This document shows, piece after piece, positions 41,662 to 47,034 of a DNA stretch of 64,000 bases. Each line of letters starts with the position of its first letter. Position 1 is the first letter of the stretch. The translations under genes were made by a program, and so were the position numbers. The stretch comes from Escherichia phage vB_EcoM_EC001, in sequence record MN445185.1, one strand, 5' to 3'. The notes below the pieces were generated by a model that had not been told where the DNA came from, ran no database searches, and saw only the letters and a list, made by a program, of their open reading frames with translations.

Positions 41662-42333
41662 TTACATGCCGAGTGATTCGGACAATGTTTTTAATCCAGT
41701 GTAATCGCGCTTTTCAGCTAACTCACGGATTTGGCGTTTGTTATCTGCCATTGCTGAGTGCAACACCTGGTCGCGTGCAACAATAGCGGCCAACAACGCT
41801 TTACATTGGTCTACTGTAAACGGACTGTGCTTCGTATTCAGCGTATCGAGCCAGTATTCTGGTGCGGTATCTGCCTGAATGTATTGACCGAGGATGGTAC
41901 GCGACGATTCATCGGCTTGAAAGTGACTACCTTCAAACTCGATATAACCATGACGCTCATCTTCGTAGCGATGGTCAAGTTCCAACAGCATCTTCTGCAC
42001 GTCTTCGTAAATGTAACGTGCGGTAGATTTCAGATTCCCGCGAATTTCGTCGAGGTCAATCTCCAGCACATTAGCAATAAACTCTTTCGTGCGTTTCAAT
42101 GTGAATTTAGCTTCAATCTCCGACATCTCATACAGCTTCATGCGTGCCAGGGCTTCTTTATCAGACATCCCTTCGATGAGATGATAATGGAGCAGAGCGC
42201 AAAAGCCTGTACGGCCCTGATCCTGCGCACCGATTCGTTCCATGAAATTACCGTGACGATCAATCGGCAAATCACGCTGGAAATAACGGGCGCGGATCTC
42301 TTCGTTCGTTAAGCTTTTGTCAGTAACAGACAT
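41662..42333 (-). CDS. Hypothetical protein, last gene of the radical SAM operon
   Basis: GAGGAGG SD; overlaps the upstream gene. Confidence 0.6.
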   Translation of the reverse strand: MSVTDKSLTNEEIRARYFQRDLPIDRHGNFMERIGAQDQGRTGFCALLHYHLIEGMSDKEALARMKLYEMSEIEAKFTLKRTKEFIANVLEIDLDEIRGNLKSTARYIYEDVQKMLLELDHRYEDERHGYIEFEGSHFQADESSRTILGQYIQADTAPEYWLDTLNTKHSPFTVDQCKALLAAIVARDQVLHSAMADNKRQIRELAEKRDYTGLKTLSESLGM

Positions 42334-42875
42334 TCGTCCTCCTCAATCAGGCCAAGTTCTAACAACAAACCGAAGTCCAGCATCTGGAAGTCCTGATCGA
42401 GGTTACCGGCCCACAACAGAGAAATGTTGTGTTGCTCTTCTTCTTCCAACTGCGGGAGCAGGTGTTCTTCGAAGATTTGACGTTCTGTGTAATAAGCGTC
42501 AACCGGGTTATTGGAGCGTAAGTTACGAATACGCATCCGCGGGAAAGACAAGCCCAAAGCCACTAAACTTTCAGGACTGGCTTCATCGATGGAATGACGT
42601 AGCAGTTCGATTTTGTGGCGTGGGTATGCGAGCAGTCGCTTCTCAAAGCCAGGGTTGCGCTTTTCGATTTCCGCGACAGACTCGTGTCCTTTCTCAACGC
42701 AGTAGACCGGGATCATCACATTCAGCCCGTATTTAATCAACAGGCTTTGGATTTCATCAGTGAAGTCTTCCCCTGCCACAATTGCGTGCACATTGTACAG
42801 CTTGCTTTTGCGCAGGAAGCGATCGACCAAGTGCAGTTTACGCTTCGTAAAATTGTGAATCAGTATTGACTTCAT
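42309..42875 (-). CDS. Hypothetical protein
   Basis: ATG 42875 with GGAG SD; track start 42953 is further upstream. Confidence 0.5.
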   Translation of the reverse strand: MKSILIHNFTKRKLHLVDRFLRKSKLYNVHAIVAGEDFTDEIQSLLIKYGLNVMIPVYCVEKGHESVAEIEKRNPGFEKRLLAYPRHKIELLRHSIDEASPESLVALGLSFPRMRIRNLRSNNPVDAYYTERQIFEEHLLPQLEEEEQHNISLLWAGNLDQDFQMLDFGLLLELGLIEEDECLLLTKA

Positions 42876-44166
42876 TCTGGGCTCCGTTTTGTAATTTTTC
42901 TGCTTCGGCACGTTGGCGTACACAACGTGAACAATAGCACATGGATTTATCATGCAAATCTGATGCGCGGGTCGTACCAGTTTTCTGATACCAATATTCC
43001 GCCGCCATCAGTTTCGCAGTAGTCCAACCACACTGACGACGCTCGGCGTGATACGCTTTACGGTCTTCCAGTGTACCTTCACCGTTTTCGTACGATGCTG
43101 CTGCGCAGCTACCGCAACTGTGTTTCATCGGACACCCTAAACAGGTTTCTGGGTAGTTGGTGTACTGCGTTTGAATCTCTTCTAACAGCTTACCACCGTC
43201 CAGGCTCACAAACTCACGACCGACCAGTTCTGCTACAGCAGAGCGGGAAGTTACCGTGGACATGAAACGGTTACAACCGTAAATCTTGCGATCAAAGCCG
43301 AGACAGGTCATGTGCGTCAACGTACCGCAGTACGGTTTCAGGCGTTCTGGGTCGAGACGAACAGAGTCGTCATGTAAGAGTTTGTCACGCCAATCCGGGT
43401 CCCAAGTTGCCATAAAGTTCAGGCCATCCGGGATGATGTGCGTAATCGTGTTACGCGGGTTGGTGTGCAGACCCTTCTCAATCCAGTAGTCCATCACGTC
43501 CATCATCTGGTTCGCGATATCCAACGCCATATGGCGCGGCAGGATATCTTCGTACGTTACATTACCAGAAATGGTACCACCGCCGGACATGTCAATTAAC
43601 GATTTCATGCTGGCGGCATAGTGCGGCAATGTATCGATCGTGAACGTCGCCTTTACGCCCAGCTCAGCGATGCCGACACTCTTCAGATAATTGTAACCGC
43701 GTACCGCAGCTTCGTACGACCCTTCACGCGTCGTGGTAAAGATACGATATTTGTCATGGACTTCAGGTAAACCATCGATGGAGACCCCAATAGACAGTTT
43801 GTCTTTCCAGCGCTCGATAATTTCTTTGTTCAGCGGACGGTCCAGAAGTGTACCGTTCGTGGAGATACTGAACATATACGGGCGATTGTGTTCTGCGCAT
43901 AACTTCTCTGCGGTTTCAAAGGCCGCCAAAAGAAGTTTAGGCTGCATGAACGGCTCACCACCAATGATATCGATGATGACTTCAACGTTCGGGATATCTT
44001 TATCGCGCTCGAAACAAGCGTGGATAAAATCAATCACGTCTGCTACTTTGTTGTTACGAGGATATTTACGCTCGTAGCAGTATTCGCAGTCCAGGTTACA
44101 TGACAGGTTAGTCACAACCTGATACGTGCGTGGTGTGTACTGGATTTGCTGTTCGCTGTTACTCAT
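42838..44166 (-). CDS. Radical SAM enzyme with SPASM-like C-terminal domain (putative peptide-modifying maturase)
   Basis: CNLDCEYC (CxxxCxxC), GGEPF, TNGTLL, SIDG, and C-terminal clusters C..C..C and CLGCPMKHSCGSC. Confidence 0.8.
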   Translation of the reverse strand: MSNSEQQIQYTPRTYQVVTNLSCNLDCEYCYERKYPRNNKVADVIDFIHACFERDKDIPNVEVIIDIIGGEPFMQPKLLLAAFETAEKLCAEHNRPYMFSISTNGTLLDRPLNKEIIERWKDKLSIGVSIDGLPEVHDKYRIFTTTREGSYEAAVRGYNYLKSVGIAELGVKATFTIDTLPHYAASMKSLIDMSGGGTISGNVTYEDILPRHMALDIANQMMDVMDYWIEKGLHTNPRNTITHIIPDGLNFMATWDPDWRDKLLHDDSVRLDPERLKPYCGTLTHMTCLGFDRKIYGCNRFMSTVTSRSAVAELVGREFVSLDGGKLLEEIQTQYTNYPETCLGCPMKHSCGSCAAASYENGEGTLEDRKAYHAERRQCGWTTAKLMAAEYWYQKTGTTRASDLHDKSMCYCSRCVRQRAEAEKLQNGAQNEVNTDSQFYEA

Positions 44167-45073
44167 TGTTCGCCGCCCGTTTACGCTTAGCAGAAATTAC
44201 ACGGTTGATGTAGTTATACGCATCAACGCCGATAGAACGCGCCAGGCGATTACAGCCGACTTCCAATATCTCTGGGGCGTTCTGAATTTGCTCCTGCGTA
44301 CCGTCGGCGTTAAGCCACAGCACTTCACTGCACGTGTTGCACTCGGTATCGAACATTTTACTGATCGCAAGCCCACACTCAGAATCGTTCTGCATGTTAA
44401 GGCGTTCGATATTGTCGAGTATTTTCCAATACCCGTACATGAAGTTCATGACGTGGTCTGGCGATAACGGTTTCGGCATCATCGCATCAAACAGCAACGA
44501 CATACCACCTGGACGGTAATGATAGATTGCTCGGTGCAGCTCGATGAAATCTTCGTACCAGCGTTTATCGCCTAACTGGTCACGCGTCATCACACCCCAG
44601 GTGTAATAGTTGTCCAGCTCGTACAGCACTTCCAGCGCTTCGTGATTACCACCGTTTACAAAGTTCATAAACGGACGTTCCGACTTCTTGTAGCCGTCAA
44701 TGGACACAAAGATAAGGTCGAACTGTTTCAGCAACGGCAGATGTGATTTACGCATCTTTAAACCGTTGGTGTACATGTGATGACGGAGGTTCGGATGAGA
44801 CTCCTTCAACTCGTTCACGAAGTCTTCAATCTTACGCTGCGCTAACAGCGGCTCACCGCCCGTCCAATGAATCTCACCGATATCCGGATTCTTCTCTAAA
44901 ATCGAGAGAATCTCTTCACGTTGAAACTCACGAGAAGTATCTTCTCTATCCATGTAATAAGCCCCTCCACAGAAGCTACAGTCTAAGTTACACTTAGAAG
45001 TTGCGACAACCGACAGAATTGACGGTTTGTCGTACAGTTCAGACGAGATCCTGGATTCTACTTGATCTGTCAT
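44159..45073 (-). CDS. Radical SAM enzyme with twitch/SPASM-like Cys cluster
   Basis: CNLDCSFC, GGEPLL, YTNGL, SIDG, C-terminal ECG..ECNTC..GC; 8-bp overlap with the downstream radical SAM gene. Confidence 0.8.
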   Translation of the reverse strand: MTDQVESRISSELYDKPSILSVVATSKCNLDCSFCGGAYYMDREDTSREFQREEILSILEKNPDIGEIHWTGGEPLLAQRKIEDFVNELKESHPNLRHHMYTNGLKMRKSHLPLLKQFDLIFVSIDGYKKSERPFMNFVNGGNHEALEVLYELDNYYTWGVMTRDQLGDKRWYEDFIELHRAIYHYRPGGMSLLFDAMMPKPLSPDHVMNFMYGYWKILDNIERLNMQNDSECGLAISKMFDTECNTCSEVLWLNADGTQEQIQNAPEILEVGCNRLARSIGVDAYNYINRVISAKRKRAANNE

Positions 45074-46211: not shown

Positions 46212-46226
46212 ATAAGCCTCCGTCAG

Positions 46227-46631
46227 TTAGGAGTTAGGACCTGAACAACCACCAGAGCACGCACCTGAGCAGTTTGCGGAGCAGGATTTACCACAACCCC
46301 CAGAACAGCTGCCTGTGCACGTGCCGCTACAACCACCAGAGCACGAAGAGCTACAGCCCGTGCAGCTGCTGCTACAGCCCGATACACAGTTTGCGGAACA
46401 AGTCGACCCACAACCACCCGTAGCAGACCCAGTACACCCGCCAGAACAACTCGAGCAACTAAAAGAGCATGTGCCACCACAGTCATAGTGCGAACGGCCT
46501 TGACCTGCGAACAAGTCGGCGTTATTCGTAGCTTTATTGCGAATGTAGTTTTGCACATTCGTGGTGTTCTTTAAAGCGTTTGCATCGATCGTGTTTAATC
46601 GGTTATTCAGTTCTTTTAATCCAATTGCCAT
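46227..46631 (-). CDS. Hyper-Cys-rich precursor-like peptide (134 aa, about 20 Cys)
   Basis: GGGGGA SD; leader then Cys about every 4th residue in a Cys/Ser/Gly-rich core. Confidence 0.7.
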   Translation of the reverse strand: MAIGLKELNNRLNTIDANALKNTTNVQNYIRNKATNNADLFAGQGRSHYDCGGTCSFSCSSCSGGCTGSATGGCGSTCSANCVSGCSSSCTGCSSSCSGGCSGTCTGSCSGGCGKSCSANCSGACSGGCSGPNS

Positions 46632-46641
46632 TTAATCCCCC

Positions 46642-47034
46642 TTAGCGACCTGAACAGCCACCGGAGCAGGCTCCGGAACAATTGGAAGAACAAGAGCCCC
46701 CGCAACCACCTGTGCAGTTACCGGTACAGCTACTACTGCAACCACCAGAACAACCAGAGCAACCAGAACAGTTACCGCCACACGTCGAAGAACAGCTACC
46801 GATACAAGAAGCAGAACAGCTTCCTGAACAGCTCGAACAGCCATGCGAGCAACCGTTAGAGCACGTCCAAGAACATGTCCCGCCGCAATCTAGCTGTGCT
46901 TTCGTCCAACCCCCAAATCGGTCTGCCGCATTATGGGCTTTAGAGGCCACTTGCGCGTCGACGCGGGGGCCTGTCGCCATGTTAGCTTCGACTATCTGGA
47001 CGCGGTTTCTGACGTCTTTAATAGATATCGCCAT
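46642..47034 (-). CDS. Hyper-Cys-rich precursor-like peptide (130 aa, about 21 Cys)
   Basis: AAGGAAG SD; paralog of 46227-46631 with the same C-terminal NCSGACSGGCSG. Confidence 0.7.
   Translation of the reverse strand: MAISIKDVRNRVQIVEANMATGPRVDAQVASKAHNAADRFGGWTKAQLDCGGTCSWTCSNGCSHGCSSCSGSCSASCIGSCSSTCGGNCSGCSGCSGGCSSSCTGNCTGGCGGSCSSNCSGACSGGCSGR

Follow-up and report, generated by a model that had tools for sequence, protein, structure and literature searches.

A radical-SAM gene cluster in the structural operon of a jumbo phage and its putative role in maturing cysteine-rich, tail-fibre-associated proteins

The gene cluster described here occupies positions 41662-47034, on the minus strand, of a 64,000-nucleotide stretch of DNA from Escherichia phage vB_EcoM_EC001 (MN445185.1), the whole of which is referred to below as the window. 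It encodes three Cys-rich proteins (cysA, cysB and cysC), an accessory protein (gp165), two radical S-adenosylmethionine (rSAM) enzymes (gp164 and gp163) and two further proteins (gp162 and gp161). We favour, with a probability of about 0.58, a maturation resembling that of ribosomally synthesized and post-translationally modified peptides (RiPPs), probably thioether cross-linking, which acts on a tail-fibre-associated structural protein and not on a secreted peptide. The enzyme class and the tight linkage of enzyme and substrate genes argue for RiPP-like maturation of the Cys tracts, which are built of Cys-X-X-X (CXXX) repeats. A structural product is favoured because a homologous domain ends fibre-like proteins elsewhere, because the genes sit between those of virion fibre proteins and that of the DUF4376 protein gp161, because CXXX proteins of 300-1000 aa are not RiPP-sized, and because the third paralogue in phages Phobos and Kwan keeps its N-terminal domain while losing most of its Cys. 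An RiPP recognition element (RRE) and genes for a peptidase, an exporter or immunity were not found in the cluster, and this too favours a structural product.

Over this region the identity to Salmonella phage SPN3US (JN641803, 138786-144286) is 98.8%; SPN3US is a jumbo myovirus of 240 kb that belongs to the genus Seoulvirus and is related to phiKZ. The cluster equals gp161-gp166 of SPN3US and forms the distal part of a minus-strand operon. An earlier note on this DNA, made from the sequence alone, had proposed either a free RiPP or a post-translationally cross-linked fibre-tip component as the product. The comparisons reported here favour the second, and the fibre-like fusions seen in other phages, together with the missing RRE, peptidase and exporter, speak against the first.

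In the mechanism that we propose, all three small proteins probably serve as structural subunits associated with the tail fibre. Each has a short N-terminal domain and a junction, which in cysA and cysB are followed by ~80 residues of (Cys-X-X-X)n with Ser, Gly and Thr. Late in infection, gp163 and gp164, with gp165 as their partner, would act on this Cys tract in the cytoplasm. The likeliest chemistry would be the abstraction of a hydrogen atom from a carbon of a neighbouring residue and the linkage of that carbon to the Cys sulfur, giving sactionine- or ranthionine-type thioethers; thioether chemistry of the kind carried out by PapB, CteB and QhpD is the most likely by family resemblance only. 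Repeated links could stiffen a floppy, low-complexity tract so that the fibre has at its distal end a rigid rod or knob, which would resist reduction and proteases. We infer that the Cys-rich proteins are the rSAM substrates, that they receive thioether links and that they are incorporated into the virion, and likewise the division of labour between the enzymes and the role of gp165.

Cysteine-rich proteins and radical-SAM enzymes

The genes cysA (46642-47034, 130 aa), cysB (46227-46631, 134 aa) and cysC (46005-46211, 68 aa, GTG start) follow one another on the minus strand; they and the other open reading frames (ORFs) listed in the earlier note were all found where it had placed them. Each of the three has its own Shine-Dalgarno-like sequence (AAGGAAG, AAGGGGGA and ACGGAGG), also as described before. 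In cysA, a helical N-terminal domain (~residues 1-49) precedes a CXXX-repeat tract with 21 Cys in residues 50-127, where the spacing is four in 17 of 20 intervals and three in the other three. Its paralogue cysB has 20 Cys in residues 51-129, with a spacing of four in 16 of 19 intervals. The core of the Cys-rich proteins is nearly all Ser, Cys and Gly. cysC consists of the N-terminal domain and the junction motif CNGGCSWSCSGSC only, with 4 Cys. A Cys at every fourth residue (~20 per 80) and a common C-terminal end had been attributed to all three proteins; both descriptions fit cysA and cysB, which share the ending NCSGACSGGCSG, and neither fits cysC.

The N-terminal segments are paralogous (A-B, E 3e-13; B-C, 1e-10; A-C, 1e-6), in agreement with the shared segment reported earlier. 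A BLAST search among all window ORFs found no relatives of these domains beyond the three paralogues, and no CXXX-run ORF was found in the 64-kb window outside the cluster. The N-terminal domain is closed by the junction motif NAxxLxGxxxxxYxCxGxCSWxC. The PHROG family phrog_6085 matches cysA at E 1e-40 and cysC at E 3e-24, and it also matches cysB. Comparison of the peptides with precursor-family models, which the earlier note had suggested, gave one NCBIfam match, the CXXX target repeat TIGR04114, just below its cut-off of 20 bits (18.9 for cysA, 17.1 and 13.7 for the others). A Pfam search of the peptides returned nothing, with a search set that did not contain PF27846, a family precomputed on relatives.

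Several frames are open in the repeat-rich Cys DNA, and the coding frame was decided by the ratio of nonsynonymous to synonymous substitution rates (dN/dS), using phages STsAS and pEa_SNUABM_29, which have ~80% DNA identity to the window. Compared with STsAS, cysA has 90 nucleotide but 13 amino-acid differences (dN 0.078, dS 2.67); over both phages, 84-90 nucleotide and 11-13 amino-acid changes give a dN of 0.07-0.08 and a ratio of ~0.03-0.04, with dS saturated. The ratio for cysC is ~0.04-0.05. Strong purifying selection is seen in the N-terminal domain and in the core alike, and chance open frames in GC-rich repeats were ruled out by dN/dS. The three genes also occur in the more distant Erwinia jumbo phages Machina, Phobos and Kwan, where neither the reading frame nor the Cys period differs. 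Because dN/dS is low and both the frame and the Cys period are conserved, the three Cys-rich ORFs are real genes and the Cys frame is coding. Tandem repeats in the DNA are weak (12- and 24-nt periods, 76% matches), and the periodicity of the Cys is kept at the protein level and does not stem from recent DNA expansion.

The third paralogue in Phobos (L004, 3955-4164) and in Kwan (L005, 3963-4172) ends CSWSSSGGAK...; it retains the N-terminal domain and the C-x3-C-S-W junction, and the later Cys are lost. Because these cysC orthologues keep the domain and lose most Cys, the domain would do more than play a leader role. What had been called a leader is better read as a structural N-terminal domain, homologous to the pre-CXXX segment of 258-568-aa fibre-like proteins.

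All three Cys-rich genes are missing from the GenBank and RefSeq annotations of SPN3US (JN641803/NC_027402). The annotated gp166 (46223-46558, 111 aa) is a wrong-frame ORF over cysB, and the annotated start of gp164 (264 aa) cuts off its CX3CX2C cluster motif. The records of Phobos, Kwan and pEa_SNUABM_29 carry opposite-strand calls over the Cys-rich genes, and opposite-strand or wrong-frame calls occur at this locus in several Erwinia phage records. The databases searched for the published SPN3US proteomes did not include the Cys-rich ORFs, so the virion list is neutral on them; mis-annotation has made these proteins invisible to every proteomic study so far. Tryptic peptides that would be diagnostic of them are VQIVEANMATGPR, VDAQVASK, AHNAADR and FGGWTK for cysA, and LNTIDANALK, NTTNVQNYIR and ATNNADLFAGQGR for cysB.

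The large enzyme, gp163 (42838-44166, minus strand, 442 aa), has the motif CNLDCEYC, and the small enzyme, gp164 (44159-45073, minus strand, 304 aa), has CNLDCSFC. The two score 55.6 and 58.8 bits on Pfam PF04055 (cut-off 29.5), which bears out their assignment as rSAM enzymes by the model search that had been proposed, and their genes overlap by 8 nt (ATGAGTAA), in keeping with the translational coupling noted before. In an alignment of nine divergent homologues (down to 34% identity), the Cys of the SAM cluster of gp163 (C23/C27/C30, CX3CX2C) are invariant, as are eight C-terminal Cys (C280, C288, C298, C342, C345, C351, C354 and C379). The pattern of the latter, CX7CX9C ... CX2CX5CX2C ... 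C, is SPASM-like and predicts two auxiliary [4Fe-4S] clusters. gp164 has C28/C32/C35 (CX3CX2C), GGE and three conserved C-terminal Cys (C245, C248 and C274); judged by this pattern, its C-terminus is not a SPASM domain, and these Cys could hold one auxiliary cluster. SPASM or twitch clusters had been assigned to both enzymes; the SPASM assignment stands for gp163, by its Cys, and falls for gp164.

The best NCBIfam match of gp163 is TIGR04115, ‘radical SAM peptide maturase, CXXX-repeat target family’ (E 3e-36, 125.6 bits), followed by the PapB ranthipeptide maturase (E 1e-32, 113.6 bits, residues 22-357) and, at lower ranks, by the HxsB, QhpD, SCIFF and CcpM maturases. Among solved structures, CteB (5wgg) is the closest to gp163, and anSME is also near. 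Its best matches are therefore peptide maturases, and not QueE or an activase, the outcome that had been named in advance as speaking against a peptide-modifying role. Formylglycine formation of the anSME type was rejected on direct reading of the substrates, in which the motif C/S-X-P/A-X-R is absent. The large rSAMs of jumbo phages have an extra C-terminal tail with a conserved CxCxxC (residues ~405-415, in the 42838-42950 region of the window), and the prophage homologues of gp163 are without it.

gp165 (45095-45982, minus strand, 295 aa) is a conserved accessory protein of the module. Its predicted fold, modelled with confidence, matched no known fold, the PqqD-like fold included, and comparison with NCBIfam models gave no sequence relation. 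A PqqD-like RRE was found in neither the maturase nor its partner, and the rSAM motif of gp163 lies already at residue 23. Pfam, NCBIfam and PHROG gave no match to a leader peptidase, exporter, transporter or immunity gene in 41662-47034.

Relatives in other phages and prophages

Homologues of gp163 at 33-39% identity occur in quite different phages and prophages, and a four-gene module, consisting of a CXXX protein, a gp165-like protein, a small rSAM and a large rSAM, recurs in unrelated ones. In a prophage of Deferribacter abyssi, a GpJ-like tail protein and two unknowns are followed, in this order, by proteins of 302 and 250 aa and by rSAMs of 263 and 385 aa. Homology to gp165 is seen for the 250-aa protein (E 1e-9), and the 263-aa rSAM is homologous to gp164 over its full length, C-terminal Cys included (E 1e-14). 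The 302-aa protein has tail-repeat-like HxHDxRYYTExE segments and, towards its end, ‘...ATNADQLGGQAGSYYRCSDCSWTCSSSC’ followed by ~100 residues of CXXX repeats. A T4-like 213-kb phage encodes a 568-aa protein ending ‘...NAVTLGGQPPDFYTCGGSCSWSCLSTC...’ and then two rSAM genes; its module is without a gp165-like gene. Three more phage or prophage contigs carry the four-gene module, with CXXX proteins of 258 aa, ~80 aa and 271 aa, and the contexts in these contigs are after a GpJ-like tail protein, after a protein with a weak T7-tail-fibre match and among large unannotated proteins.

In other phages, then, the CXXX tract is the C-terminus of proteins of 258-568 aa. In two of these fusion proteins, HxHDxRYYTE tail-repeat-like segments match Pfam PTR below its threshold. 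PHROG comparison gave matches to tail or virion-structural families, among them one to a ‘virion structural protein’ family (E 1e-6), and the 271-aa protein passes Pfam Phage_tail_fib, a tail-collar fibre model (24.2 bits, cut-off 23). phrog_6085 aligns to the pre-CXXX segment in most CXXX proteins of the module, and the junction motif is common to the window proteins and the CXXX proteins of other phages. Fusion to fibre domains and location among tail genes were thus both found, although for the window proteins themselves the evidence is indirect.

A scan of IMG/VR gave at least 180 viral contigs with relatives of gp163, and 79 IMG/VR loci were kept for neighbourhood analysis. At 76 of these 79 a co-oriented CXXX-run ORF lies within ~2 kb of the rSAM gene, and the CXXX proteins range from 110 to 1025 aa, with up to 87 Cys. 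The distant majority is of a single-rSAM type (23-27% identity to gp163), and CXXX proteins of such distant relatives show weak, sub-threshold matches to carbohydrate-binding domains. In one gut phage (L037) the rSAM reaches 309 bits on TIGR04115, and the CXXX protein is above the cut-off of TIGR04114; over 1100 protein clusters are related to a gut-phage member of the family. At L037 (5900-13257), the CXXX protein and the TIGR04115-like rSAM adjoin a collagen-like fibre protein and a group-II/retron-type reverse transcriptase, an arrangement that resembles a diversity-generating retroelement at a tail-fibre locus. Another single-rSAM relative is flanked by Ig-like giant proteins. NCBI labels such proteins of Caudoviricetes ‘CXXX-repeat target family’. 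By these comparisons the window system appears to be a two-rSAM-plus-gp165 variant of the CXXX-repeat family, a variant present in the SPN3US-like and related Erwinia jumbo phages examined and in scattered prophages.

Some relatives are arranged differently. L025 (IMG/VR 3300045988_078609, 4126-9290) has an extra small rSAM between two long Cys-rich genes, and L010 (5306-8134) has two small rSAMs ahead of the large one; these extra enzymes hint that small rSAMs may be substrate-specific. In L027 (IMG/VR 3300006545_000001, a 279-kb contig, 6883-10074), a 97-aa protein ending GCESCAMGCHGPQ is followed by a gp165-like protein, a large rSAM and a small rSAM. This trio adjoins an intein-containing helicase, not tail genes, and possibly represents a minimal form of the system or one put to another use. 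Since it stands outside a tail context, the module is not obligatorily fibre-linked.

Known systems and competing explanations

The CXXX-repeat system (TIGR04115 rSAM_Cxxx_rpt; targets TIGR04114/TIGR04117; PF27846) likewise places a SPASM-type rSAM beside a co-oriented Cys-X-X-X protein; in the window, the target and gp163 are on the same strand and 1.8 kb apart. A further tie is phrog_6085, which connects the window peptides to the gut-phage CXXX proteins whose rSAM reaches 309 bits on TIGR04115. The window differs in adding a second, short rSAM and a gp165-like protein. The CXXX-repeat family is defined in silico only, and we found no publication on it, on its association with phages or on these SPN3US genes.

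The maturases PapB, CteB/ScfB, AlbA and TrnC/TrnD share with the window system the rSAM plus SPASM architecture and donor Cys in a four-residue register. In contrast to these ranthipeptide and sactipeptide systems, the window has no N-terminal RRE, no Asp/Glu acceptor motifs and no protease or export genes, its substrates have far more Cys (20-21, and up to 87 in relatives), and the CXXX tracts of relatives are fused to large proteins. The parallel once drawn with thuricin CD proves loose, as TrnC and TrnD are two full-length SPASM sactisynthases whereas the second enzyme of the window, gp164, is short (304 aa), with three conserved C-terminal Cys and no SPASM pattern.

Another likeness is with the uncharacterised His-Xaa-Ser system (HxsB/HxsC, HxsA and HxsD), which also combines a short-period repeat substrate, an accessory of unknown fold and a SPASM and a non-SPASM rSAM. 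gp163 matches HxsB at E 5e-21 (75.1 bits, cut-off 370) and gp164 matches HxsC at E 6e-12 (45 bits, cut-off 267.9), scores far below the cut-offs; the repeats are of His and Ser there and of Cys in the window. QhpD installs intraprotein Cys thioethers in QhpC, a structural subunit and not a secreted peptide. Here a SPASM rSAM puts several Cys thioethers into a lasting structural subunit, a precedent for our reading of the window, and gp163 scores 55.5 bits on the QhpD model. QhpC differs in having three Cys-Asp/Glu links and in being an enzyme subunit; in the window there are ~20 periodic Cys, acidic acceptors are absent and the context is that of a phage tail.

Several observations weigh against the cross-linking of a fibre-associated protein. 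The Pfam SPASM model (PF13186) matches neither enzyme at E <= 0.1, and gp163 is far under the TIGR04115 cut-off (125.6 vs 350 bits). AlphaFold2 (AF2) yields no confident structure for the CXXX tract: the cysB model, built on a 17-sequence alignment, has a predicted local distance difference test score (pLDDT) of 43.6 and shows two N-terminal helices only. Asp/Glu acceptors of the PapB or QhpD kind are absent from the Cys-rich proteins of the window, whose modification and virion incorporation are both deduced from comparison with relatives. At L027, away from tail genes, the protein next to the enzyme trio is 97 aa long and has only three Cys. Finally, a helical N-terminal segment followed by a Cys-rich core also resembles an RiPP leader and core.

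The last point belongs to the alternative that survives best, a classical RiPP cluster, which we regard as unlikely. It would make leader-plus-core precursors with sactionine or ranthionine links; a protease of the host, or an unlinked one, would cut off the leader, and lysis would free the cross-linked peptide to serve as bacteriocin, signal or metallophore. At 68-134 aa the precursors have a size typical of RiPPs, and they combine a conserved helical N-terminal segment with a Cys-rich core; the nearest enzyme families are the RiPP maturases PapB, CteB/SCIFF and CcpM; and donor Cys spaced as CXXX are typical of sactipeptides, thuricin CD among them. However, no RRE accompanies the enzymes (the rSAM motif of gp163 lies at residue 23 and gp165 has no PqqD-like fold), and the operon is without a peptidase, transporter or immunity gene. 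In other phages the CXXX tract is fused to fibre-like or carbohydrate-binding proteins of 258-1025 aa, and in Phobos and Kwan the N-terminal domain survives the loss of core Cys. The cluster is also strictly within the structural late operon in every SPN3US-like and related Erwinia jumbo phage examined.

Less likely still, and in our judgement improbable, the Cys-rich proteins would be metal-binding (Zn/Fe, metallothionein-like) or disulfide-stabilised structural proteins, and the rSAM pair would have a different target, for example another fibre protein, a cofactor or a glycan. Strings of CXXXC can act as metal chelators, trimeric fibres bind axial metal (the His-X-His sites of T4 gp37/gp12), and the modification that we favour is itself drawn from indirect evidence. 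What counts against this explanation is the linkage of a CXXX ORF with a co-oriented rSAM gene at a distance of <=~2 kb, in 76 of the 79 viral loci and throughout the modules of four unrelated phage types, a co-occurrence that is the signature of an enzyme-substrate pair. NCBIfam TIGR04114 and TIGR04115 are defined on the same linkage, and all the nearest relatives of gp163 have Cys-containing peptides as substrates.

A service of the rSAMs in nucleic-acid or cofactor metabolism (QueE-like, MoaA-like, activase or thymidine hypermodification), with accidental adjacency to the Cys-rich genes, is highly improbable. In its favour, phage rSAMs in DNA hypermodification are known (PMC8989533), and gp164 has weak N-terminal matches to MoaA, QueE, NrdG and viperin models. 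These matches, however, cover the shared rSAM core only (~residues 20-130), with scores far under the cut-offs; different phage types alike pair a small and a large rSAM with CXXX proteins; and no nucleotide-metabolism genes adjoin. A QueE, MoaA or activase role was rejected on the same restriction of the matches to the rSAM core.

Operon context and implications

The operon begins with the genes of the giant proteins gp170, gp169 and gp168, followed by that of the coiled-coil protein gp167 and then by the Cys-rich cluster. Mass spectrometry places the products of these four upstream genes, gp167-170, among the non-head proteins of the virion (PMC5694885 Suppl. Table 1), and gp168 has been described as a baseplate/fibre protein (PMC5105663). 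In the SPN3US virion proteome, gp167-173 are present and gp161-165 are absent (PMC5694885 Suppl. Table 1); their absence fits enzymes that act before assembly. gp167 (47100-48338, minus strand), an abundant coiled-coil non-head virion protein encoded directly upstream of cysA, is a candidate partner of the Cys-rich proteins, and the three SPN3US-like paralogues might form a heterotrimer on gp167 or on the gp168-170 fibres.

Between the gp167 stop and the cysA start, the minus strand has a 16-bp hairpin followed by the U-rich UUCUACUUUUU (47047-47092; -24.3 kcal/mol, z -3.7 vs shuffles). It may be a partial terminator, an attenuator or an RNA-stability element, and may set the expression of the maturation cluster below that of the abundant gp167. 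At the other end, the two further downstream ORFs and the bidirectional terminator of the earlier note were recovered. gp162 (42309-42875, minus strand, 189 aa, of unknown function) has a GGAG Shine-Dalgarno sequence at its start at 42875, in a long ORF that reaches 42953; phrog_7988 aligns from residue 27 of the long ORF. This gene is kept within the jumbo-phage clade only and is outside the module core found across phages. gp161 (41662-42333, minus strand, 223 aa), the last gene of the operon, is a DUF4376 protein that matches Pfam PF14301 at 38.1 bits (cut-off 25) and, weakly, phrog_2837 ‘tail protein’ (E 4e-4). A hairpin resembling an intrinsic terminator on both strands (41621-41644; 10-bp stem, 7 GC) closes the minus-strand fibre operon.

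In the adjacent block, a tail assembly chaperone and an endolysin are annotated in RefSeq. gp159, a 163-aa ORF (40417-40908, minus strand), begins MKRLFIVFAFISLLTGC, a lipoprotein signal with a lipobox, and possibly encodes a lipoprotein of the lysis or spanin type. Close by, at 38183-40291, are genes that in relatives carry the annotations endolysin, M15 peptidase and tail assembly chaperone.

The rSAM annotation and the name of the CXXX-repeat family are already in databases. New here are the three unannotated genes, the two-rSAM-plus-gp165 variant and the CXXX domain fused to tail-fibre-like proteins across phage types. To our knowledge, the proteins in which radical-SAM cross-linking has been described are secreted peptides and one enzyme subunit (QhpC), and none belongs to a virus particle. 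If virion proteins are indeed stapled in this way, they would be the first structural proteins of a virus with a radical-SAM post-translational modification, and the stapling would be the first biological role for the uncharacterised, database-only CXXX-repeat family (TIGR04114/TIGR04115). Enzymes that install ~20 cross-links in a simple Ser/Gly/Cys repeat would then also be attractive for peptide and protein engineering. SPN3US, with its amber mutants and deposited proteomics data, is a tractable genetic model.

More broadly, and more tentatively, phage virions may hold RiPP-like cross-linked proteins, in which a ‘ladder’ of Cys at the fibre tips is stapled by phage-borne radical-SAM enzymes. 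Thioether-stapled tips would explain how the thin adhesins of some phages resist proteases and reducing conditions, and the stapling strategy would be common to jumbo phages and abundant gut phages as well as to prophages of several phyla.

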